Origin: a virus
Lineage: Duplodnaviria > Caudoviricetes
Length of the DNA: 24,271 nucleotides
IMG/VR virus record: IMGVR_UViG_3300031519_000218
Span: 1-24,271 of that record
Direction: 5' to 3' (one strand)
Position numbers and translations under genes: made by a program. The notes below the pieces were generated by a model. It searched no databases, was not told the DNA's origin, and saw only the letters and a list, made by a program, of their open reading frames with translations. Of the stretch, positions 960 through 23,446 are shown one piece after another. How positions within the stretch are numbered: position 1 is the first letter of the stretch; every line of letters begins with the position of its first letter.

Positions 960-1056
960 AGTAAAGTTCAAGTGGATGATCCTTAAGATGAGGATACGCA
1001 AACCAAAAACAGAAGTTGATAATAGTAAAGGGTTTATCTATGAAGAGGACGAATAA
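931..1056 (+). CDS. small hypothetical protein (41 aa)
   Basis: Below the ORF-track cutoff: MNNMQKFILKVKFKWMILKMRIRKPKTEVDNSKGFIYEEDE. It fills the gap between two genes and has AAGGT upstream. Confidence 0.5.
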   Translation: MNNMQKFILKVKFKWMILKMRIRKPKTEVDNSKGFIYEEDE

Positions 1057-1756
1057 GTTTGTATTTGATGTTGATGGTACACTAACTGAAAGTCGTTGTT
1101 TTCGTGACGATTCCTTTGGTGAATTTTTTCTAGACTTTTGTAGAAAAAATGACGTGTATATCGTGACTGGTTCTGATAGAGCCAAGACTTTGGAGCAACT
1201 TGGTCCTGAAATATACTATGAATGTAAGCTTGCATATCAATGTTCTGGAAACGACGTCTGGTCTGGTTCATCCCACATAAGGTCAAACAGTTGGGTCCTA
1301 CCCAAACACGTCAGGACGTGGCTGTATGAAAAACTTGAGCAATCCGATTTCAGCATTCAGACGGGGCTTCATATAGAAGAAAGGCCGGGGTGTGTAAATT
1401 TCAGTATTGTTGGGCGTAACGCTACCAAAGAACAACGTGCGACCTATATAGAGTACGAAGGTTTCGTTGGAGAGAGGCGTCTAATTGCAGACTTATTTAA
1501 CTTGACATTTGCTGGTCTAGAGGCTACAATTGGTGGAGATACTGGGTTAGATATCGGTCCTATTGGAGCGAACAAATCTCAAATTATGGCAGATTTCGGT
1601 GAGACCGATAACGTCATATTCTTTGGAGATAAGATGTTTGAGGGCGGCAATGATTTTCCTTTAAGCGAAGCTAATAAAGACGGAATTAACTTCCATGTCC
1701 GAAATGTACAGCATACTTGGGACATATTAAAAGAATTTTATTTAAAGGATACATAA
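1040..1756 (+). CDS. HAD-superfamily IIB phosphomannomutase-like protein (eukaryotic PMM type)
   Basis: FVFDVDGTLT (motif I), VTGSD (motif II), HIEERPGCVNFSIVGR cap region, FFGDKMFEGGNDFPL (motif IV as in PMM/Sec53). Confidence 0.8.
   Translation: MKRTNKFVFDVDGTLTESRCFRDDSFGEFFLDFCRKNDVYIVTGSDRAKTLEQLGPEIYYECKLAYQCSGNDVWSGSSHIRSNSWVLPKHVRTWLYEKLEQSDFSIQTGLHIEERPGCVNFSIVGRNATKEQRATYIEYEGFVGERRLIADLFNLTFAGLEATIGGDTGLDIGPIGANKSQIMADFGETDNVIFFGDKMFEGGNDFPLSEANKDGINFHVRNVQHTWDILKEFYLKDT
1502..1530 (+). promoter_or_regulatory. sigma70-like promoter inside the PMM gene
   Basis: TTGACA-N17-TACAAT, near consensus; could drive 1757 onward (glutaredoxin cluster). Confidence 0.5.
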
Positions 1757-4398: not shown

Positions 4399-4692
4399 AT
4401 GATGTACATGCTTGAACAAGACAAAGACGGTGTAATTGCCAATCTGAAAGATGGCGTATGCGAGGTAACCTTTACGAAAGTAAATGGCGAAGAACGTGTA
4501 ATGCAATGTACTTTGAACCCTGATCTCTTGCCAGAATTGCCGACAGCTAAACCTGATGAAGGCACAGCAGCTAAACCTAAAAAAGCCCCAAACCCTGACG
4601 TTCAACCTGTGTATGATATTAATGCAGCGGGATGGCGTTCTTTTCGTTGGGATTCAGTAACAAACTTTACCAAATTAGATTCGGAGAAATAA
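4399..4692 (+). CDS. WYL_2/DUF2693-like Sm/SH3 beta-barrel protein
   Basis: VTFTKVNGEERVMQCTL...VYDINAAGWRSFRWDSV; AAGGA SD before 4399. Confidence 0.75.
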   Translation: MMYMLEQDKDGVIANLKDGVCEVTFTKVNGEERVMQCTLNPDLLPELPTAKPDEGTAAKPKKAPNPDVQPVYDINAAGWRSFRWDSVTNFTKLDSEK

Positions 4693-4694
4693 TA

Positions 4695-5642
4695 ATGAGC
4701 GTGATTTATAAAGGCCAAATCATCGAAAGCGAACAATCCAAGAACGCGAATGGTGGTACAGAAATGATGCGTAGACGTCTACTTAACAATGTAGACCACG
4801 ATCTCTTGTCTAATGTAGCAATCCACTTCAGCAGACCACGCGGTGAGTTGCCTTCTGATGTAAAGAATGTTTTGTATTGTCACGATCTCGCCCAAGACCC
4901 AGAAAACGCAATTCTATTGGATGATGGCTGGAAAAAGTTCGATCATCTTGTTTTTGTTTCTCAGTGGCAACGCGACCAATACATTTTGATTTATGGTATC
5001 CCATATTCTAAGTGTTCTGTAATTCCAAATGCAATCGAAAAGACATACAATCCAAAAGATAAGCCTACTGATACGATTCGGTTTATCTACCATACAACAC
5101 CACATCGTGGTCTTGAATTGCTATACCCAGTTTTTGATGCACTTTCAAAAGATCATAACAACATTCACTTGGACGTGTATTCTTCTTTTGCAATCTATGG
5201 TTGGGCAGAGCGCGACGAACCTTATGTGGATTTGTTTACTAAAATTCATGAACATCCCAAGATGACTTATCATGGGTCAGTTCCTAACTCTCAGATTATG
5301 ACTGCACTTGATGATGCACATATTTTCTTGTATCCAAATACTTGGAGAGAAACGTCATGCATTGCTATGATCGAAGCTATTAGAAGTGGTGTACTTTGTA
5401 TCCACCCTAATCTTGGTGCTTTGTCTGAAACCGCCGCTAATGCAACTGTCATGTATGATTATCACGAGGATAACATGTCACATGCGAATATCGCTTATTC
5501 GTATGCAAAACAAATTTTGGACATCCAAAATAACAACCCAGACTTCCTTAATCAAATGACTAATAAGCAACAGATGAGCTTGCACTCTTCATCCATCGAA
5601 GTATACAAAAACAATTGGCATAAAATATTGAGAGATTTGTAG
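4695..5642 (+). CDS. glycosyltransferase, GT-B fold (GT4-like)
   Basis: N-terminal GGTE, FVSQWQ, VIPNAI, YHTTPHRGL, ETSCIAMIEA (EX7E) and GALSE. GGAG SD before 4695. Confidence 0.85.
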   Translation: MSVIYKGQIIESEQSKNANGGTEMMRRRLLNNVDHDLLSNVAIHFSRPRGELPSDVKNVLYCHDLAQDPENAILLDDGWKKFDHLVFVSQWQRDQYILIYGIPYSKCSVIPNAIEKTYNPKDKPTDTIRFIYHTTPHRGLELLYPVFDALSKDHNNIHLDVYSSFAIYGWAERDEPYVDLFTKIHEHPKMTYHGSVPNSQIMTALDDAHIFLYPNTWRETSCIAMIEAIRSGVLCIHPNLGALSETAANATVMYDYHEDNMSHANIAYSYAKQILDIQNNNPDFLNQMTNKQQMSLHSSSIEVYKNNWHKILRDL

Positions 5643-5646
5643 AAAT

Positions 5647-5997
5647 ATGGCGGAAATTATTACTTTCCCAAAAGCGAAAAAGAACAGTCCACCTCAATCA
5701 AAAGAAGAGGTGGACGAAAAAGTTGCAGAATTTAAGGAAGATTTTGCAGATCAAATTTCTGAAATGGTTTGGAGAAGTGTTATCATTGATATGGTGCGGT
5801 CTGGATGTGACTTCGATGAAGACCCTGTTGCGTACTTTCCCGCAATGGTCTTGATTTTAGAATCAATCAAATCTCTGCATTTATTGACACAAGGCCTTGA
5901 GCACCCATTACAAACGTTTGCAGATGAATCCATTAATTTGGATGATTATACAGATGAAATTGATATTATACTTGACACCGAAGAGGATATGGACTAG
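5647..5997 (+). CDS. hypothetical protein
   Basis: 116 aa acidic ORF, N-terminal IITFP. Confidence 0.8.
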   Translation: MAEIITFPKAKKNSPPQSKEEVDEKVAEFKEDFADQISEMVWRSVIIDMVRSGCDFDEDPVAYFPAMVLILESIKSLHLLTQGLEHPLQTFADESINLDDYTDEIDIILDTEEDMD

Positions 5998-6000
5998 TAT
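5972..6000 (+). promoter_or_regulatory. sigma70-like promoter for rnh
   Basis: TTGACA-N17-TAGTAT. Confidence 0.55.
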
Positions 6001-6033
6001 AGGTCCTACAACTATTATGATGAGAAAAAAACA

Positions 6034-6894
6034 ATGGCAATTCTAATGGACTTCAACCAAGTTATCCTTGCTTCGCTGTTTCAGAGCATTGGTAACCACA
6101 CTAACATAGACATTGATGAAAATCTAATTCGTCACATGTTTTTAAATTCAGTACGAGCTAATCGCAAAAAGTTCACTAATGAGTATGGTGAAATTGTAAT
6201 TTGTGCTGACGGCAAGAATACATGGCGTCGTGAAGCATATCCATACTATAAGGCAAATCGCAAAAAGACCCGTGACAAATCTGAGCTTGATTGGAATAAC
6301 TTATTCAGCATTATGAATACTATTCGTGATGAAATGAGAGAGTTCTTTCCATACAAGGTAATTCACATCGATCATTGTGAAGCAGATGACATCATTGGTA
6401 CGATTTGCCACCAAGAAGGCACACAGCTTAATGTGGGTGGCGAGAAGTATCTTGTACTGTCAGCAGACAAAGACTTCATCCAACTACAAACTTATGCAAA
6501 TATCGATCAGTACGATCCTATTCGCAAGCGTTGGTTGAGTGACAAGAACCCCGTGCAGTTCCTTGAAGAACATATCATCAAGGGCGATGCTGGGGATGGA
6601 GTGCCAAACATTCTATCACCTGATAATTGTTTGGCTGTTGGAGAACGGCAAAAGCCAATGACCCAAAAACGAATGGCTCTGTTTAAAGGCACGAAAGAAA
6701 ATATGGATGAGGAAACTCTTGCTAGATTCAATCGGAACAAAATGATGATTGATCTTGGGGAAGTACCTCAGAAATATAAAGACATGATTCTTTCTGAGTT
6801 CAATCAATCGAACGATGTTGGACGTGAGCACTTGTTCAACTTTTTTGTTAGCAAGAAACTACGAAACTTAATTTCAGACATACAGGATTTTTAA
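6034..6894 (+). CDS. rnh: T4-type RNase H (5'-3' exonuclease)
   Basis: ILMDFNQ, WRREAYPYYKANRKK, EADDIIG, SADKDFIQL, KGDAGDGVPN. Confidence 0.95.
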   Translation: MAILMDFNQVILASLFQSIGNHTNIDIDENLIRHMFLNSVRANRKKFTNEYGEIVICADGKNTWRREAYPYYKANRKKTRDKSELDWNNLFSIMNTIRDEMREFFPYKVIHIDHCEADDIIGTICHQEGTQLNVGGEKYLVLSADKDFIQLQTYANIDQYDPIRKRWLSDKNPVQFLEEHIIKGDAGDGVPNILSPDNCLAVGERQKPMTQKRMALFKGTKENMDEETLARFNRNKMMIDLGEVPQKYKDMILSEFNQSNDVGREHLFNFFVSKKLRNLISDIQDF

Positions 6895-8451: not shown

Positions 8452-9201
8452 ATGGCCAAACAGCGAAGATTATCCCGTAGAGAAAAGCAAAGACAAGAAA
8501 GAGACAGTGAGCACCTAGTTGGAATTTTAAATCAAAAATTTTCCATGCGAAAGATATCACCTCTAACAGTTTCTCAATCAGATTTATTTGATTCATACAA
8601 ACAAGGACAAAATCTCGCAGCAATAGGTACGGCAGGCACAGGAAAAACGATGTGTGGTCTATACCTAGCTTTAGAAGACGTTATGACTAAAAAGGATTTC
8701 GAACAAATTGTTATTATTAGATCGGCAGTTCAAACCAGAGAACAGGGTTTTATGCCGGGAACAAAGGAACAAAAGGAAGCACTATACGCTGTGCCTTATT
8801 CTGACATCGTAAACGACTTATTTGGTCGCAAGGATGCATACAAGATACTAGAGCAAAAGGGCATGATTAAGTTTATGACATCCTCTTTTGTACGTGGATT
8901 GACCTTTGATAACTCTGTTATCTTAGTTGATGAATGCCAATCTATGACTTACCACGAATTGGATACGATCATCACACGCGTTGGTGAGTCTTCGAAGATC
9001 ATCTTCTGTGGAGACACAGCACAAAATGATCTAGCAACATCTAGAAATAGAGCAGACGTTTCTGGTCTTTCGGATTTCCTAAGAGTGATTAAAAAAATTG
9101 ATTCCTTCACGACAGTCAAGTTTACGGTTAATGATATCGTTCGCTCTGGTTTGGTTAAGGAATATATTATCGCAAAAGAAAGAACATTGGAAGCAGCATA
9201 A
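8452..9201 (+). CDS. phoH: PhoH-family ATPase
   Basis: GTAGTGKT, GFMPGT, RGLTFDN, VDECQ, GDTAQND, DIVRSGLVK. AAGGAGG SD before 8452. Confidence 0.95.
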   Translation: MAKQRRLSRREKQRQERDSEHLVGILNQKFSMRKISPLTVSQSDLFDSYKQGQNLAAIGTAGTGKTMCGLYLALEDVMTKKDFEQIVIIRSAVQTREQGFMPGTKEQKEALYAVPYSDIVNDLFGRKDAYKILEQKGMIKFMTSSFVRGLTFDNSVILVDECQSMTYHELDTIITRVGESSKIIFCGDTAQNDLATSRNRADVSGLSDFLRVIKKIDSFTTVKFTVNDIVRSGLVKEYIIAKERTLEAA

Positions 9202-9548
9202 TGCCAGAAGCAGCTAGAGGAAATGCAACAGAGACTGTGAATACAGTACACGTAGCGGTGGGTGATGTGGATACAGATGACTCATCGTTCTGTGACGCAG
9301 CACCTATCGTTACCTCTACTGACAAATGTAGTGGCAAAGTAAAAGCAGAAGGTAAAGGCATCGTTCGACAGGGCGATGCCGTTACTGCTCATGCTATTGG
9401 TGGTGTTTGTGCTACCCACACACCAGCATTAACCGCGTTTAGTGGCAAAGTTAAAATAGAAGGTAAAGGTGCTGGACGTAAGGGTGACACGTATGGGTGT
9501 GGCGCAATAATCACATCTGGATCAGGAAAAGTAAATATTGGTGGCTAA
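9201..9548 (+). CDS. PAAR-repeat spike-tip protein (T4 gp5.4-like)
   Basis: MPEAARG, GKGIVRQGD...H, GKGAGRKGD..CG, SGSGKVNIGG: three PAAR-like repeats with His/Cys ligands. Confidence 0.8.
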   Translation: MPEAARGNATETVNTVHVAVGDVDTDDSSFCDAAPIVTSTDKCSGKVKAEGKGIVRQGDAVTAHAIGGVCATHTPALTAFSGKVKIEGKGAGRKGDTYGCGAIITSGSGKVNIGG

Positions 9549-15936: not shown

Positions 15937-16218
15937 ATGAACAATGGTACAACTGAAAACATTCTAACAGACGGCCCACAAGAGGTTTATTCCGTCACTG
16001 CTGAAGAACTGCGTCAATTTATTGAGCGTATTGAAACTCTTAATGAAGAGAAATCTGTAATTGCAGAAGCCACAAAAGAAGTCATGCAAGAAGCCAAAGG
16101 TCGTGGATATGACGTTAAGGTTATTCGCAAGATCATTGCAATTCGCAAGCGCAACCGTGATGACATTGATAGCGAAAATGCTATTACTGAAATGTACATG
16201 GAAGCATTGGGGATGTAA
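15937..16218 (+). CDS. gapR: GapR/DUF2312 nucleoid-associated protein homologue
   Basis: ELRQFIERIETLNEEK...KEVMQEAKGRGYDVKVIRKIIAIRKR...YMEALGM, the DUF2312 consensus. Confidence 0.92.
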   Translation: MNNGTTENILTDGPQEVYSVTAEELRQFIERIETLNEEKSVIAEATKEVMQEAKGRGYDVKVIRKIIAIRKRNRDDIDSENAITEMYMEALGM

Positions 16219-17364: not shown

Positions 17365-18672
17365 TTAGAACAAGTTTGCAATCGCAACGCGACGGTAGTA
17401 CTTGTTGGAGTCGGCTGTAAGAGCACCGTTTCCTTGAGTAGCACCAGCGGCATATGGGTTTGCAACCATGCCATATCTTGTCTTGAATCCAATTTTTGGT
17501 TGGAAGCTGTTCTCACCAACCGCACGAACCATTTGCAACGGCACGTATGGGCAGTAGAAAAGGCCAGCGTCGAAAGAAGACGAACCTTTATAACCAACTA
17601 CAAGGTAGTTAGCACCTGCATATGGATCGATATACACTTTGTAGCGACCATTAAGAACACCAGCAAATGTGTTGCCTGTGTCATCAACGTTCAAAGAGTT
17701 GCTGTTAAGAGCAGGTGTGTAATCAAGTACACCAGCCATTTGAAGTGCAGAAGCAACATCGGAAGAACAGATAACCATGTTACCTTTACCACGACGTGTA
17801 CCTTTTGCAATCGCGTTAGCTTCTTGCTCGATTTGGAACATTAGGCCCTTGAACTTCTCAACTGACCAACGGCCATTTGCGTCAACATCAAGGTCGAAAG
17901 TACCAGCTACAGCAGTAGAGGCTGCACCGACTTCAGCAGTTGCATAGATTGTACGAACCAATTCACGGTTGATTTCCACTAGGATTTCAGACTGTAGAAT
18001 GTTGGCTAGTTCTGTTTCGGCGTCTAGACCGTGAACAGCTTTAAGGTCTTGTGCAAGCTCAGTAGTGTACTCAGCTTTCAAAGCGCGAGACTTAGCAGCA
18101 ACAGTAACTTTTTCAATTGAGAAAGCCATTTCTGCGAAGTTAGTACCGTTACCGTCGCCAAGAGCTTCAGCTTCAGTTGTACCCATGCCAATACCAGTTG
18201 TTACACCAGCTTGACCAAGTGCGTTGGCGTGTGTGCCTGCACCAGAGAAGTCTGTATCGGCTTCGTTGTAGAATGCTTCTGCACCAGCTTGGCTAGTTGC
18301 GCGTGAACGCATAGCAAAGATCAAACCAGTTGGGCCAGTCATTGGCTGAACACCAGCAATGTCATAAGCAATTAGGTTTGGCATCGCACGACGTACTAGA
18401 GAAATAAGTACTGGGTCGTAACCTGCTGTTGGGCCACCAGCGGCAGAGGCTGAGCCGAAGCCGCCTGTACCAGCATCGTTAGCTGCGGTTTCTGTCAAGA
18501 AAGAAGACATGTTAGCTGACGTATCGCCAGATTCCATTAGTGCTCTTTCGGTGTTTTCAAGAATAGTCGCAGTCACGGCTTTCTTGTGATTGTCTGTGAT
18601 AGCTGCGAAAGACGAGTGCTCCAAGATTGGACCCCATTTTGCGACTAGCTGCTGATAGTTTGACTGAGTCAT
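17365..18672 (-). CDS. gp23: major capsid protein gp23
   Basis: KWGPIL, DPVLISLVRRAMPNLIAYD, GVQPMTGPTGLIFAMR, KSRALKAEYT, YCPYVPLQM, FQPKIGFKTRYG. Confidence 0.99.
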   Translation of the reverse strand: MTQSNYQQLVAKWGPILEHSSFAAITDNHKKAVTATILENTERALMESGDTSANMSSFLTETAANDAGTGGFGSASAAGGPTAGYDPVLISLVRRAMPNLIAYDIAGVQPMTGPTGLIFAMRSRATSQAGAEAFYNEADTDFSGAGTHANALGQAGVTTGIGMGTTEAEALGDGNGTNFAEMAFSIEKVTVAAKSRALKAEYTTELAQDLKAVHGLDAETELANILQSEILVEINRELVRTIYATAEVGAASTAVAGTFDLDVDANGRWSVEKFKGLMFQIEQEANAIAKGTRRGKGNMVICSSDVASALQMAGVLDYTPALNSNSLNVDDTGNTFAGVLNGRYKVYIDPYAGANYLVVGYKGSSSFDAGLFYCPYVPLQMVRAVGENSFQPKIGFKTRYGMVANPYAAGATQGNGALTADSNKYYRRVAIANLF

Positions 18673-18741: not shown

Positions 18742-19698
18742 TTATTTTGACGGCATCCTGTTGAAGCCTTCAAGAAGTGCGTTGATATTAGAGTATTCAG
18801 ATACTGGTGCTTTTACCTCAGTACTTTCAACCATAATTTCTTCTTCATCATTCACTTCTTCGACCAAAGGCTTGCTTTTAGCAAAGAAAGACTCTTTGAG
18901 TGTTGTAAGATCAGATTTATAAGCGTCAAGATTATCGAACGCTAGTTTTTCAGAAAGAACCTTCAGGCGCTCAACTTGGGTAAGCGTAAGACCTTCTGTC
19001 ATTTCTTCAAATGCTGCGCTTGCTTTCAAAGAAGCGATCTCTTTTGCAAGAGTAACGTTTTCTGTGATTGCTTTATTTGCGCCAGCTTTAAGTTCTGCAA
19101 CTTCTTCTTCCAAGCCAGCAACTACGTCAATGGTATCTTCATTGATTTCGATGTTGTGCTCTTCGAATAGTGTTGCTAGACCGTCCATCAACGACTCAGC
19201 CATTTCCACTTTAATACCAGCTTCGATAGCCAAATTGTTTTCTGTCATCCACTCTTCTACTACGTAGTCAAGATACGAATCAAGATTTTCGACAATATTC
19301 GCAACTGTTTCGTCTGCCGATTCTTGCATCTGCAAGGTAAGGGCTTCAACTTTTTCAGCTACCATAGTGTCTGATCTTTTGGTTGCTGCTTCGTTAACAG
19401 CCGCCTCAAAAACGAGAGTTACTTTGCTTGTAAATTCTTCAGACAAATCCATGCCTTCAAACATAGTCGCAATTGACTCGTCAAATTCAATTACTTCTTC
19501 TGCAACGATTTCGGCCTCATCATCTGTGGCTTCTTCTGCTTGCATTGGGGCAGCTTTTACTTTATCAGCTTTGGCGTCAACTGTTTTTTTGACGTCTGCT
19601 TTATTTTTCTTAACTGCTCCACCCGCTGCTGTCGCTGGTGCTTCAACAGATGAAACCCCATCGTCAGATACGAACTTTTCTTCTAGGTCGTTAGACAT
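18742..19698 (-). CDS. gp22: prohead core scaffold gp22
   Basis: LSEEF...FEAAV, LDSYLDYVVEEWMTEN, LKESFF; acidic coiled coil between gp21 and gp23. Confidence 0.95.
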   Translation of the reverse strand: MSNDLEEKFVSDDGVSSVEAPATAAGGAVKKNKADVKKTVDAKADKVKAAPMQAEEATDDEAEIVAEEVIEFDESIATMFEGMDLSEEFTSKVTLVFEAAVNEAATKRSDTMVAEKVEALTLQMQESADETVANIVENLDSYLDYVVEEWMTENNLAIEAGIKVEMAESLMDGLATLFEEHNIEINEDTIDVVAGLEEEVAELKAGANKAITENVTLAKEIASLKASAAFEEMTEGLTLTQVERLKVLSEKLAFDNLDAYKSDLTTLKESFFAKSKPLVEEVNDEEEIMVESTEVKAPVSEYSNINALLEGFNRMPSK

Positions 19699-19756: not shown

Positions 19757-20446
19757 TCAATTTTTGAGAGAGCTTATAAAGCGTTCGAACAACTTAGCTG
19801 CTGTAGATTCGTCAACACGACGGACAACACGTCTAACTTCTTGCTCAACAGTTTCTTGAATTTCCTCAATTACTTGTTGGATGGATTCTTGAGCGATCCA
19901 GTGTCCAGAAGCAATATCAAAGTAATATTCAGCATTCTCCATGATGCCGTTAACAAAACAATTCGGGCCTGAAGGATCGGTTACAATATCAACTGTCGCA
20001 AGGTGAAAGTCATTTTGAACTTCCATGATGCCTTCTTTAGTTGGTTTGACTGAACCTAATCCACGGGTAGAAACACCAATTGTAACACCCTCATCCATGA
20101 AAGTTTTTACGATCTGACCCATAGGTGTGCCAAGAATTTTAGCTTTACCAGTGAAGTTTGATCCGTCACGTTTCATTTCTGTAATTAAATGAGAAACACG
20201 ATCACCATTGATGGTTGGACCCTCTGGATGACCAAGTTCTCCTAATGCACGTTTTGTACTAATAAAGTCTTTGTTGTAACGTGTCATTTCACTTTCGAGT
20301 ATTTGCGAAGGATAAATGCGACCATTACGGTTTTTGATATCACCTTGCATGAAGATACCCTCGACGAAATAGGATTTTGTTCCTGTTTCTTCGTTAATTT
20401 CGGTTGCTACTGAGCAATCCTCTACTACTTCTGTAATTAGTCTCAT
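19757..20446 (-). CDS. gp21: prohead protease gp21
   Basis: MRLITE, EGIFMQ, NRNGRIYP, ALGELGHP, GVSTRGLGS, DIVTDPS. Confidence 0.97.
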   Translation of the reverse strand: MRLITEVVEDCSVATEINEETGTKSYFVEGIFMQGDIKNRNGRIYPSQILESEMTRYNKDFISTKRALGELGHPEGPTINGDRVSHLITEMKRDGSNFTGKAKILGTPMGQIVKTFMDEGVTIGVSTRGLGSVKPTKEGIMEVQNDFHLATVDIVTDPSGPNCFVNGIMENAEYYFDIASGHWIAQESIQQVIEEIQETVEQEVRRVVRRVDESTAAKLFERFISSLKN

Positions 20447-20479: not shown

Positions 20480-20713
20480 TTATGATCTGTAAGAAACTGG
20501 CGTACAAGAAACTGATGCGCTGGCAGCAATTGTGTCTGCTGGGCTTTTCTCTACGATTTCAACTGTATTTATGGCCATGTCAAATGTACCCGCTGCATTA
20601 CCAGCAACTGTTATTGTAGCAGCGCTAGTAGCATGTATTCTAACCAATGTTGCAGAAGCAACAGTATTGGCAGTGGTAACGTTTACAGCAGCGCCTTTTA
20701 ACTTCAAAATCAT
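20480..20713 (-). CDS. small head-cluster protein (beta-rich, Ala/Thr-rich)
   Basis: 77 aa, ATGA overlap with the upstream gene; ATLVRI...IVEK.P.D pattern. Confidence 0.75.
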   Translation of the reverse strand: MILKLKGAAVNVTTANTVASATLVRIHATSAATITVAGNAAGTFDMAINTVEIVEKSPADTIAASASVSCTPVSYRS

Positions 20714-22479
20714 TGCGATGTCTCCTTTGCAAATCCTAGAATTTCAGCAAACCCTTTTTTGTCTCTCATTGCAGTAGCAGTCATTTTTTTAGAATTCGTC
20801 CCACTTAGTTGGGTCATCAAGTCGTTCAACATTTTAGCGTCTTCTTTCTTAACCAAAACTTGCTTGCCGTCATCCAACTTAAGACCACCAGCTTTGAAAG
20901 CTTCATTAAAAACCTCTTCAGCAATCACATCTGCAATAGTGAAATCTTCAAGTTTAACACCTTCTCTGCGCATAGAAGCCAAAGATTTTTGTGTGGAAGT
21001 CATCGTGCGAACTGGTTTCTTACGTCCAGTAGCTGTGCGTCCCATAGCTGCATTATGCTCAGCGTCTTTTGCACGTTGAACTTTAAGGAAGTCAGGCTTT
21101 ATCTTTGGTGCGCCTTTTCTGCGAGGTGCTTCATCAAGTTCAACAGATTCTTTTTTGTACCAAGGCGCTGTCTTCAAAGTAACTTTTTCTTTACCTTTTT
21201 TAGAAACTTCAGCTTGCTTAGACAATGCAGCTTTTGTTGCCGCTGCTCTGCTTTCATCAAGATCATTTAAAGCTTCGTCAAGTTGAACGTCTTCTTTTTG
21301 CATTAGTTTCATTGCAACGTTTGCAAGTTGAGTTGCTTTCATCTTATCTAGTTTTGCTTTATTGGTGTCATTTACTTTGTTGTAAATCTGTGTGACAGCG
21401 GAAGCTGTGAACATGTCAACCATAACACCGTCAATCTTTGCCGCTTGCTTTTGGTCAACTATTTTCATCATTGCTTCCAAAGTTTTAGAAGCTTCATCAA
21501 GTTCAAAAGATTCTCTGTACATGTTCAACTCATAAGAATTGCCCATGTTGTAGACTTGTACTTGGATAGCTTTTTTACCATCTTTGCCTAGCAAACGATA
21601 AGAGTTTGTTTTGCCATTAGAAGGCTTCTTAGGACCCATAGCAACTTTATCGTCAATCTCAGAAGGATCAACAATAATACCAAGACCAGACTTTGCATAT
21701 TCATATGCATGCTTCATAGCACTTGAGAAATCTTTGTGGTATAACTCATAACCCATAGCTTCAACAACAAGTTCTTCGCTACGCATACGTGGCTCTCTAC
21801 GATTATCACTTGGGTTCTCAAGACGCAAGTTCTTGGGATCGTTGTTAAGTGGATCGTTGTCTGCGTGACCTACATCCATACCATCAACATCATTCTCTTT
21901 AGCCATAATTCTACGGGCTTTATTTCTTGAAGAACGATTTGCGATTTGCTCTGGTCTACCTTGGTAGTTGTCGTATTCTTTTCTGTAATCGCGCTCAGCA
22001 AGATCAACAGACTCTTTGACTAAGCTAGTCATAGAAGCGCCCATATCACCAAGTGCAAGTGTAACATTACCATTTCTGTTGTAGAGATAGTATTTCATTT
22101 TTCCAGCGTTGTCGCCTTGGCGTGTCATAGTGATCTTGCCAACTTTTGACTTGCCAACAACAGATTTGAATGTTACTTTGAAAGTACCTTCACTGCCTTT
22201 TTTGATAGACGAGTCGTACTTGATAGTAACCATGTCACCCTTTTTAAGTGCATCGAACATAGCTGAATAATCTTTAGCTGCTTCATCAAGTTCAACAGAC
22301 TCTGTTTTGCCTTTATACGCTCTTGCGTCTTTTGTGGCCATTCTTTCTTTCTTGTCTTGCTCAGATTTTTTGGCCATTAGTTTAGCAAACTCAAGTCTTT
22401 TCTTTTGTGTGGCGATTGCGCTGTCAATTTTGTCAGCTTGAATAGACTCTTTGACGAATAAATTCTTGAAGGTTTTCAT
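20710..22479 (-). CDS. putative internal head/prohead core polyprotein with HNH module
   Basis: Located between gp20 and gp21; N-terminal MKTFKNLFVKE; repeated ES(V/F)ELDEA-type linkers; internal DVGHADNDPLNNDPKNL...NR. Confidence 0.75.
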   Translation of the reverse strand: MKTFKNLFVKESIQADKIDSAIATQKKRLEFAKLMAKKSEQDKKERMATKDARAYKGKTESVELDEAAKDYSAMFDALKKGDMVTIKYDSSIKKGSEGTFKVTFKSVVGKSKVGKITMTRQGDNAGKMKYYLYNRNGNVTLALGDMGASMTSLVKESVDLAERDYRKEYDNYQGRPEQIANRSSRNKARRIMAKENDVDGMDVGHADNDPLNNDPKNLRLENPSDNRREPRMRSEELVVEAMGYELYHKDFSSAMKHAYEYAKSGLGIIVDPSEIDDKVAMGPKKPSNGKTNSYRLLGKDGKKAIQVQVYNMGNSYELNMYRESFELDEASKTLEAMMKIVDQKQAAKIDGVMVDMFTASAVTQIYNKVNDTNKAKLDKMKATQLANVAMKLMQKEDVQLDEALNDLDESRAAATKAALSKQAEVSKKGKEKVTLKTAPWYKKESVELDEAPRRKGAPKIKPDFLKVQRAKDAEHNAAMGRTATGRKKPVRTMTSTQKSLASMRREGVKLEDFTIADVIAEEVFNEAFKAGGLKLDDGKQVLVKKEDAKMLNDLMTQLSGTNSKKMTATAMRDKKGFAEILGFAKETSQ

Positions 22480-22865
22480 TAGTTGGACTCTCCCAAGTTC
22501 TTGAGAACATCTTTCATTGTGTTGAAAGGTCCCGTAGTAGAGTTGCCATTCTTCAAGTGAAAGTAACCAGCTTTGTCTTTAATGACTTTAGGTGGGTTCT
22601 TCATGGTGTTAAGCTTGGACTGTACAGCCGCCAAATCTTTCTTGTCCATGACATATTTGTTGCCAAGTTCATCAAGTTGTTCAGCTTCATGCATTTTATT
22701 TGCAGCCCTATTAAGACCAGTTGCTCGATTTTGGCCTTGCTTATAATCTTTAGTTGTAAGAGTACCTTTTGCAAGCTTGTCTCTTTTATTTCTTAAATCA
22801 AGCGCAGATTTTGCGTGGTAGCTTTTAAGAGTTTCTTGTGATACTTCATCAAGTTCAGCTTCTTC
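21127..22865 (-). repeat. dispersed linker repeat (CTT GAT GAA core, encoding L-D-E)
   Basis: + strand TTCATCAAG at 21130, 21253, 21493, 22282, 22668 and 22845; 21-nt identity TGCTTCATCAAGTTCAACAGA at 21127-21147 and 22279-22299. Confidence 0.8.
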
Positions 22866-23387
22866 GTTCATTTTGATGAAGTTCTTGGCTGGCTTGCCGC
22901 CCTTAGATACCATATCGATTTTGTATTTACCTGATTTCAAACCAGCAACACCAGTATCTTTCCAAGAGTTGTCATTCTGCTTGCCAAGGAACGCGCCCAT
23001 TGCATTTACATCTTTGAATGCCTTTACTTGTACTCTGTTGGAAACCATTTTACCCGGTGCTTTTGGCATATCTTTGTATGCAGATGCAGTAGCTTCTTCA
23101 AGATCAACGCCCATGCGTCTTGCAAGTGCAGATTCAATGTAATCGTTAGGAAAATCAAGACCAGCATCGTAAGCCTTGTCATAATTGGCATCGCCAGTTT
23201 GATCTGCTGGGCGACTAGCTTTTTCTCTTGGAAGGCCAGCAGCACCAATGTCACCAGTAAATTGGTGATCTAGTGCAACAGGATGTTGACGGACTTCATA
23301 GCTGTGTTGGTCGATAAAGGCCTGTTCTTCACTAGCTCTATCGTTGGGTTTTGCAACCTCGCTTAGTATCTCTTTAAAGGACTTCAT
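22479..23387 (-). CDS. putative internal head/prohead core polyprotein
   Basis: N-terminal MKSFKEILSE (capsid-targeting-like); linkers VDLEEA, EEAELDEV, EAEQLDEL. Confidence 0.75.
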   Translation of the reverse strand: MKSFKEILSEVAKPNDRASEEQAFIDQHSYEVRQHPVALDHQFTGDIGAAGLPREKASRPADQTGDANYDKAYDAGLDFPNDYIESALARRMGVDLEEATASAYKDMPKAPGKMVSNRVQVKAFKDVNAMGAFLGKQNDNSWKDTGVAGLKSGKYKIDMVSKGGKPAKNFIKMNEEAELDEVSQETLKSYHAKSALDLRNKRDKLAKGTLTTKDYKQGQNRATGLNRAANKMHEAEQLDELGNKYVMDKKDLAAVQSKLNTMKNPPKVIKDKAGYFHLKNGNSTTGPFNTMKDVLKNLGESN

Positions 23388-23413
23388 CTCTGTTCTCCAT
23401 TGATCTTTTATTA

Positions 23414-23421
23414 TATTTATC
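23414..23421 (-). promoter_or_regulatory. probable late promoter (one mismatch)
   Basis: GATAAATA on the - strand upstream of GGAG and ATG 23387. Confidence 0.55.
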
Positions 23422-23446
23422 TATTTTTAACGTTCGTATTTTATTT

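Follow-up and report, generated by a model that had tools for sequence, protein, structure and literature searches.

The window, a stretch of 24,271 nucleotides (positions 1 to 24,271 of the IMG/VR virus record IMGVR_UViG_3300031519_000218), carries on its minus strand, in this order, the portal gene, an open reading frame (ORF) of 302 amino acids (aa), one of 589 aa, one of 77 aa, and the genes for gp21, gp22 and gp23. The T4-type head genes gp20, gp21, gp22 and gp23, as encoded by phages with T4-type internal proteins, are all present around the 302-aa and 589-aa ORFs, and the source phage is an uncultured T4 relative. An earlier note on this DNA had described the 589-aa protein as a polyprotein of about eight modules joined by linkers of the prohead-protease type. 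Translation agrees with this ORF and its N-terminus, with each of the seven linkers at its coordinates, and with the FLTE site of gp23 (Table 1); the system is however larger than had been noticed, as the upstream 302-aa ORF, which is of the same build, had been overlooked. The 77-aa ORF has no leader and was therefore excluded from the system. In the closest relatives its slot is occupied by an unrelated ORF of 74-93 aa starting with MAWV, or by nothing.

Table 1. Features of the polyprotein locus and of the neighbouring head genes (positions in the window; M1-M8, modules of the 589-aa ORF)
Feature	Position	Strand	Remarks
302-aa polyprotein ORF, upstream	22479..23387	-	Leader, N-module and three more modules; linkers VDLEEA, EEAELDE, EAEQLDE
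Leader of 302-aa ORF	23358..23387	-	10 residues, MKSFKEILSE; capsid-targeting-like
Conserved N-module	23160..23357	-	Homologous via relatives to N-half of phiM12 gp070
589-aa polyprotein ORF	20710..22479	-	N-terminus MKTFKNLFVKE; M1-M8 and seven linkers
Leader of 589-aa ORF	22447..22479	-	11 residues, ending V-K-E
M1	22303..22446	-	Predicted long helix, net charge +7
Linker 1	22279..22302	-	ESVELDEA
M2	22015..22281	-	Predicted beta-rich domain, net charge +9
Linker 2	21994..22014	-	ESVDLAE; strains L238 and P0003 have a 75-aa module inserted here
M3	21778..21993	-	HNH-like, net charge +2; also as free genes with and without leader
Linker 3	21757..21777	-	EELVVEA; in many relatives only a short R-[SN]-E joint
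M4	21511..21759	-	Predicted compact domain of two helices and three strands, net charge +2; also as leader+module genes of 94-98 aa
Linker 4	21490..21513	-	ESFELDEA
M5	21292..21492	-	Predicted domain of hairpin and helices; paralogue of M8
Double linker 5	21250..21294	-	EDVQLDEA-LNDLDES
M6	21151..21252	-	Basic, 34 aa; in the upstream ORF of close relatives
Linker 6	21127..21150	-	ESVELDEA
M7	20959..21129	-	57 aa, net charge +12; relatives have it in one or the other ORF
Acidic spacer and linker 7	20899..20958	-	Ending IAEEVFNEA
M8	20713..20901	-	C-terminal, conserved across the family; homologue of the C-half of phiM12 gp070
77-aa ORF	20480-20713	-	Ala/Thr/Val-rich, no leader, phrog_19805; between polyprotein and gp21
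gp21 prohead protease	19757..20446	-	Peptidase_S77, E 1e-34
gp22 scaffold	18742..19698	-	Internal control for the protease motif
gp23 FLTE	18490..18501	-	Predicted propeptide site, residues 58-61

The linkers resemble the site of the T4 protease gp21, which cleaves after L/I-X-E (PMC9026906), and the window's own gp21 would be the enzyme that cuts the chain. The acidic pattern E[SED]x1-3[LIVF]xE, which was defined only after the linkers had been inspected, occurs 7 times in the 589-aa protein, versus a mean of 0.33 and a maximum of 5 in 10,000 shuffles, none of which reached 7. Since the count of bare [LIVMF]xE sites is ordinary across the whole protein (12 sites, 28% of Glu versus 24% expected), the signal consists in the concentration of Glu at the joints. 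At the DNA level, the linkers form an 8-copy repeat of 23 nucleotides with copies 74-91% identical, and they are biased toward one Leu codon (62% versus 35%); as the repetition is confined to the linkers, a simple tandem-repeat protein was ruled out. Such a repeat would suffice as microhomology for recombination, and the linker likely has two roles, as a protease site in the protein and as a short recombination homology in the DNA.

The linkers are true module joints. We retrieved at least 3,689 homologues among 7,999 scored candidates, 120 of which were listed; counts over homologues include related sequences and do not represent independent events. The flank analysis used 117 of those listed (query and two near-identical strains left out). 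The modules were aligned one by one and in a full-length alignment that retains misaligned rows, and family F0, two modules lumped by single linkage, was omitted from counts. Among these 117 homologues, the [LIVMF]xE motif occurred in 175 of 184 distinct upstream flanks of the window's modules and in 147 of 171 downstream ones, versus 24% of random windows, and its density within modules was 0.10 per 100 aa versus 2.33 overall. Of the 606 homology breakpoints mapped across 42 non-redundant proteins, 43% fell within 5 aa of such a site, as compared to 19% of random positions, and 57% of the 335 breakpoints with at least three partners did so; replacing Glu by Asp, Lys, Arg or Ala in the motif abolished the enrichment in the same protein set.

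Module content is variable. The earlier note had proposed comparing relatives for gain, loss and reordering of modules between conserved linkers, and all three were found, as well as duplication: the 117 homologues display 32 module orders, and modules shift between the two ORFs and duplicate in relatives. A fixed module content with unconserved linkers, the opposite outcome named by the note, is excluded by this turnover. It extends to the strain level, as in strain L238 (99.8% DNA identity) linker 2 is the site of an additional module of 75 aa and the crossover maps to linker-coding DNA, the near-identical strain P0002 lacks M5, the missing stretch extending from linker to linker, and P0003, also near-identical, both carries an extra module at linker 2 and lacks M5. 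The co-linear L238, together with P0002 and P0003, rules out an assembly chimera. Synonymous divergence (dS) from the relative L012 is a mosaic along the gene (0.025 for M5, 0.29 for M7, 1.0-1.8 for M2-M4), a pattern that suggests exchange module by module, with a recent swap of M5. Modules M2-M4 are under purifying selection, with ratios of nonsynonymous to synonymous divergence (dN/dS) of ∼0.05-0.19 versus 0.07 for gp21.

Some modules are also found as free genes. The leaders of T4 internal proteins have the form MKT(Y/F)...E. The family's leaders have Phe at position 4 in 40, a hydrophobic residue at position 8 in 41, and Glu at position 10 in 35 of the 42 non-redundant proteins, and that of the 302-aa ORF follows the T4-type rule canonically (aromatic residue at 4, hydrophobic-x-Glu at 8-10). 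In T4 IPIII, residues 4 and 7 of the 10-residue leader are described to govern targeting, and residues 8 and 10 processing (PMC9026906). Among the best 120 of 4,605 short M3 homologues, some entries of which are contig fragments, 68 join the module without a gap to a T4-type leader that has Glu as its last residue, and in 26 the native start lies no more than four residues from where the module begins; where a prefix is present (93), it ends in Glu in 82 cases and in [LIVMF]xE in 74. Leader+M4 genes of 94-98 aa make up 6 of 51 complete M4-bearing ORFs, and a free leader+M2 form is represented by one apparently complete protein (P0269) among 59 short matches that are mostly fragments. The leader end, the linker end and the natural domain start all fall at the identical position. 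We regard these free genes as the strongest evidence, as their predicted N-terminus is the same as the one cleavage at a linker would produce.

We then placed the two ORFs in the family that occupies the slot between portal and gp21. A gp21 search yielded 483 relatives, the best 80 of which were used for locus comparison, and 56 loci contain the complete interval (L237, the window's own contig, was left out). The interval holds one ORF in 47 loci and two in 9, with lengths of 233-862 aa; as most relatives have a single ORF, the pair in the window is a split form of the gene, the 302-aa ORF being its 5' half. The N-module stands in first position in 56 of 56 loci, and the C-module, M8, closes the chain in 55 of 56 (46 recognised by pattern, 9 variants by eye). 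Similarly, when M8 homologues are clustered at 50% identity, the best 150 of 652 clusters have the module at the C-terminus (protein lengths 76-997 aa), and [LIVMF]xE immediately precedes it in 146 of 146 representatives (null 33%). Near the M8 C-terminus (window 20713-20745) lies a conserved F-x-E whose Glu does not vary (23 of 23); it might serve for C-terminal trimming or for binding to the core.

In Sinorhizobium phage phiM12, the same slot is filled by gp070, a 135-aa protein annotated as hypothetical that consists only of leader, N-module, acidic linkers and C-module, without inserted cargo modules. Judged by its sequence, gp070 is the minimal form of the family. Its N-half matches the relative L077 (tblastn, E 1e-9) and its C-half the M8 profile (HHalign, 82%, E 1e-5), a direct pairwise comparison of gp070 with the window's proteins being below detection. 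No cultured phage was matched by tblastn with the 302-aa ORF or with L073. The simplest reading is that insertion of modules into a small prohead-core gene gave rise to the family. T4 gp68, which has the same slot, showed as a single sequence no detectable homology to the M8 profile (HHalign 0.2%).

The repertoire of modules is large. The 110 leader-bearing representatives contain 799 segments, which have a median length of 60 aa and a net positive charge in 84% of cases, with up to 13 segments per leader in the family; they cluster into 205 families, 69 of which have at least two members. The avoidance of Glu that had been pointed out in some of the window's modules is real (a single Glu in the 89 aa of M2, and one in M5 besides the first Glu of its linker), whereas their description as mostly unrelated and Lys/Arg-rich holds only in part, as M5 and M8 are distant paralogues, bridged by gp30 of phage Melnitz, and net charge ranges from +2 in M3 and M4 up to +12 in M7. 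Homologues of M1 were found in near-identical strains only.

The full-chain structure model (predicted template modelling score 0.30) is consistent with a beads-on-a-string architecture, with M2, M4, M5 and M8 mostly at 70-92 in the predicted local distance difference test (pLDDT) and five of the seven linkers below 50. M4 folded alone reached a pLDDT of 80.6, and its fold search gave a best Z of 4.6 and no Foldseek match at E 0.001 or better. Neither did the full-chain model match the PDB at that threshold; weak rows to WYL and Pelota proteins (Sm/SH3-like; E 0.03-0.3, ranges not shown) are a weak lead that M2 might possibly be SH3/Sm-like. The viral structure library returned only low-TM (template modelling) rows, the Atlas search unnamed viral clusters with scores of at most 0.82, and PDB sequence searches with the profiles of M2, M3 and M5 nothing meaningful. 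Excised M3 scores 25.1 bits with Pfam HNH_3 (cut-off 24.8), the His-Asn-Asn motif is present, and His43, Asn55 and Asn64 are invariant in 9 of 9. This HNH-like module excepted, the window's modules matched no known anti-defence or enzyme family. Among 63 other homologues searched with Pfam, 4 contain DUF5824 and 1 contains a cytidylyltransferase. T7-like podophages of Prochlorococcus, Pelagibacter and Vibrio likewise have M3-like HNH genes (the P0035 family; H5, H7 and H21), which in two cases adjoin the scaffolding gene.

Several cultured phages carry related proteins. In Melnitz, gp20 carries M2 and M4 at a distance from the portal gene, Cr30 and S-SKS1 each encode a chain of 682 aa joined by the same linkers, and the same modules are also found in polyproteins elsewhere in other genomes. 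For S-CREM2, the published virion table contains gp154 with 3 peptides, gp155 with 5 and gp160 with 7 (PMC10665884); gp154 is a leader followed by a cytidylyltransferase, gp155 and gp160 consist of linkers and basic modules, and gp160 shares one module with the homologue P0035 (E 2e-5). We take this listing as weak support, because the table also contains the scaffold and the authors allow for co-purification (PMC10665884). Melnitz further possesses a run of genes with leaders of the MK-F-E type (L081 1539-8611), which form a cargo cluster outside the head operon and include a cytidylyltransferase fused to linker-separated modules.

With respect to the polyprotein interpretation of the earlier note, module turnover at linkers and free leader+module genes bear it out in part, and cleavage, presence in the virion, ejection and a function in the host are suppositions of the following model. 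To account for the observed architecture, the turnover at linkers, the free leader+module forms, the avoidance of the motif inside modules and the purifying selection, we propose that a head gene in the gp68 slot has been expanded into chains of exchangeable modules that are loaded into the head, cut by gp21 and delivered with the DNA, a reading that we find reasonably probable. The T4-type N-terminal leader would load the chain into the prohead, where gp21 would cut after each linker Glu and release proteins of about 40-95 aa; both steps seem very likely. The freed modules would then stay with the packaged DNA, and it is quite probable that they survive in the mature head. They would enter the cell with the DNA, which we favour by a narrow margin over their remaining behind. 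Once inside, their most plausible task would be to shield the incoming genome, either by coating it or by blocking host nucleases or sensors by analogy with T4 Ip1-3, each of which is reported to block one GmrSD variant (PMC12373910); such a protective role is conceivable and somewhat doubtful.

Several observations weigh against this model. The leader of the 589-aa ORF is non-canonical, with Glu at position 11 (in the near-identical P0003, a canonical 10-residue leader ending I-A-E is followed by a 9-residue stub). The canonical motif is present in only 7 of 21 flanks at the 3' joint of M3, which suggests that some joints may be uncut, and in giant phages homologous head proteins are described as cut in one phage and uncut in another (PMC5694885). 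M3, M6 and M7 have low confidence in the full-chain model. Embedded M3 copies read D-V-G-H in 47 of 47, versus D-V-H-H-K-D in 103 of 119 short copies, and the Gly before the conserved His implies that nuclease activity may be lost. Pfam detected no known effector in 83 relatives, the sole recurrent match being DUF3008 (16 of 83). To these add the scaffold and the possible co-purification in the S-CREM2 table, and the T4 core proteins gp67 and gp68, whose reported fate is breakdown into small peptides and exit of these from the head, gp68 being non-essential (PMC9958956).

Among other explanations, the one that fares best is that the chain is loaded, cut and retained in the head only as generic peptides that neutralise or pack DNA, with no role in the host. 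The net positive charge of most segments, many of which look like low-complexity Lys/Ala/Arg peptides, the largely unstructured prediction for M6 and M7 and the lack of known effector domains in the 83 relatives would all fit. Yet generic charge needs no 205 sequence families, nor folded domains with invariant residues and an HNH-like domain, and charge alone leaves the strain-level turnover of modules unexplained, so that we consider this explanation unlikely. Less likely again is an enlarged prohead core or scaffold protein in the manner of T4 gp67/gp68, which would shape the core, be cut and be expelled, its middle modules being tolerated passengers. The gp68 slot, the conservation of the N- and C-modules back to phiM12 gp070, the tolerated length range of 233-862 aa and the degradation of the T4 core proteins argue for such a fate, which is quite plausible for the two terminal modules. 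The window's own scaffold offers a comparison, as gp22 has a hydrophobic residue two before Glu in 30 of its 52 Glu (p 1.5e-5), and gp21 itself is enriched in [LIVMF]xE (15 of 24 Glu, p 0.001), the pattern expected for degraded substrates; the 30 sites of gp22 would leave fragments of at most 19 aa but for one of 60, whereas the pieces predicted for the 589-aa protein measure 41-90 aa, and dense sites yielding short peptides only, as in gp67/gp68, are not what it displays. Total degradation like that of a scaffold, which the earlier note had raised against its own idea, is disfavoured by these sizes, and modules that avoid the motif, are under purifying selection and exist as free leader+module genes likewise do not fit a core protein. 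Finally, that the linkers stay uncut, as acidic spacers, repeated core-binding tags or recombination repeats within one multidomain chain, is very improbable: the linker DNA repeat with its Leu codon bias, the hydrophobic residue missing at some joints and the about 80% of remaining SPN3US head proteins reported as uncut (PMC10052503) would agree with it, but hydrophobic-x-Glu is likewise the terminus of leaders in free genes with a single module, where its position is identical, and both gp22 and gp21 contain it in excess; inside a prohead of the T4 type, moreover, gp21 would have access to a protein at every linker of low structure.

The proposed cut-and-delivered chain shares traits with several known systems. 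Like the T4 internal proteins IPI, IPII, IPIII and Alt (PMC9026906, PMC12373910), it has a 10-residue leader with an aromatic residue at 4 and hydrophobic-x-Glu at 8-10, small and mostly basic predicted mature products and a strain-variable repertoire, and the build of the free M3 and M4 genes is identical to theirs. The T4 proteins, however, carry one cargo per gene, trimmed at one or both ends, and lie in separate ip loci, whereas here the sites are internal and the genes occupy the portal-protease slot; the 589-aa ORF has eight modules where one small mature protein per gene is the rule for the class, a rule that the free M3 and M4 genes, found in other phages, do follow. The searches made returned no sequence match to T4 internal proteins. 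T4 gp67 and gp68 share the position between gp20 and gp21, and in gp68, too, an acidic region with many hydrophobic-x-Glu precedes a basic tail, but the two are 80 and 141 aa long, and degradation has been reported for them. Polyvalent proteins (Iyer et al., 2017) likewise combine unrelated domains in mosaic architectures in one virion-associated chain, and their authors predict that they are injected and processed and draw the analogy to polyproteins (PMC5512222). They differ by large enzymatic domains and predicted processing by an embedded zincin-like metallopeptidase, and their description in the relevant parts of that paper mentions neither repeated prohead-protease linkers nor a T4-type leader (PMC5512222); in turn, Pfam matched no such metallopeptidase or polyvalent domain set in the window's proteins, the 63 homologues or the 83 representatives. 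In the ejection proteins of SPN3US and phiKZ, the prohead protease also cuts after Glu in a short motif, sometimes repeatedly (PMC5694885, PMC10052503), but 13 of 14 sites mapped in SPN3US are described to remove N-terminal propeptides, and repeated cuts to destroy propeptides without freeing multiple products. As polyvalent proteins already embody multi-domain injected chains, albeit with another predicted peptidase, and as SPN3US processing removes propeptides, we rate the present system as a variant of the T4 leader/gp21 cargo system, outside the single-cargo class of internal proteins. Prohead-protease-linked modular cargo polyproteins were not described in the full-text literature searched, which does not cover most subscription papers.

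Protease-processed polyproteins are a hallmark of eukaryotic viruses, and the known head cargo of T4 is encoded as one protein per gene. It is tempting, and at this stage speculative, to envisage that T4-like aquatic phages run a self-reshuffling protein magazine, in which the DNA of the cut site doubles as the recombination joint. If so, any captured small gene (HNH-like, DUF3008, DUF5824) could be turned into injectable cargo in one step, and hundreds of module families would constitute a large untapped library of injected anti-defence or host-takeover proteins. Provided that the chains are cut as predicted, very common "hypothetical" genes of marine T4-like phages would represent hundreds of small proteins whose ends are readable from sequence and which could individually be tested against bacterial defence systems; the scale is given by the at least 3,689 homologues and by the 652 clusters of the C-module alone. 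The model predicts specific new N-termini in the cultured phages Melnitz, Cr30, S-CREM2 and phiM12, and it suggests a natural route to multiplexed cargo in T4-type capsids.

Some further features of the slot and its surroundings were recorded. There is no gp67-like small gene between portal and polyprotein (window 23388-23446), where phiM12 has a 56-aa gene (L082 5831-6001); the latter had no homologue in the window and one chance-level match among the loci. T4 gp67 does not figure among the core proteins given as dispensable (PMC9958956). In L016, the polyprotein (5294-6805) starts with a different, acidic N-terminus that looks gp67-like, and a second polyprotein (1469-2836) lies 2.5 kilobases upstream of it. 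A module with an EF-hand/dockerin-like loop (D-x-N-x-N-G-x-I-D) is very common in relatives (L024 6344-7936, and most interval ORFs of L017-L078) and absent from the window, and Cys-rich and His-rich modules are also present in relatives. The T4 late-promoter sequence TATAAATA precedes gp21, gp22 and gp23 (window 20476, 19743 and 18717, minus strand), and the 302-aa ORF is preceded only by imperfect A/T-rich variants of it.

Elsewhere in the window, a gene matching eukaryotic-type phosphomannomutase (HAD family; 1016-1756, plus strand), a glycosyltransferase gene (4632-5642) and a PAAR-motif gene (9201-9548, plus strand) were found, the last amid genes of replication and metabolism and distant from the structural genes. 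A GapR-like DNA-binding protein is encoded at 15937-16218 (plus strand; Pfam, E 1e-28). The GapR family is alphaproteobacterial, and this gene hints at an alphaproteobacterial host, which fits the phiM12-like phages as the best cultured match for gp21.

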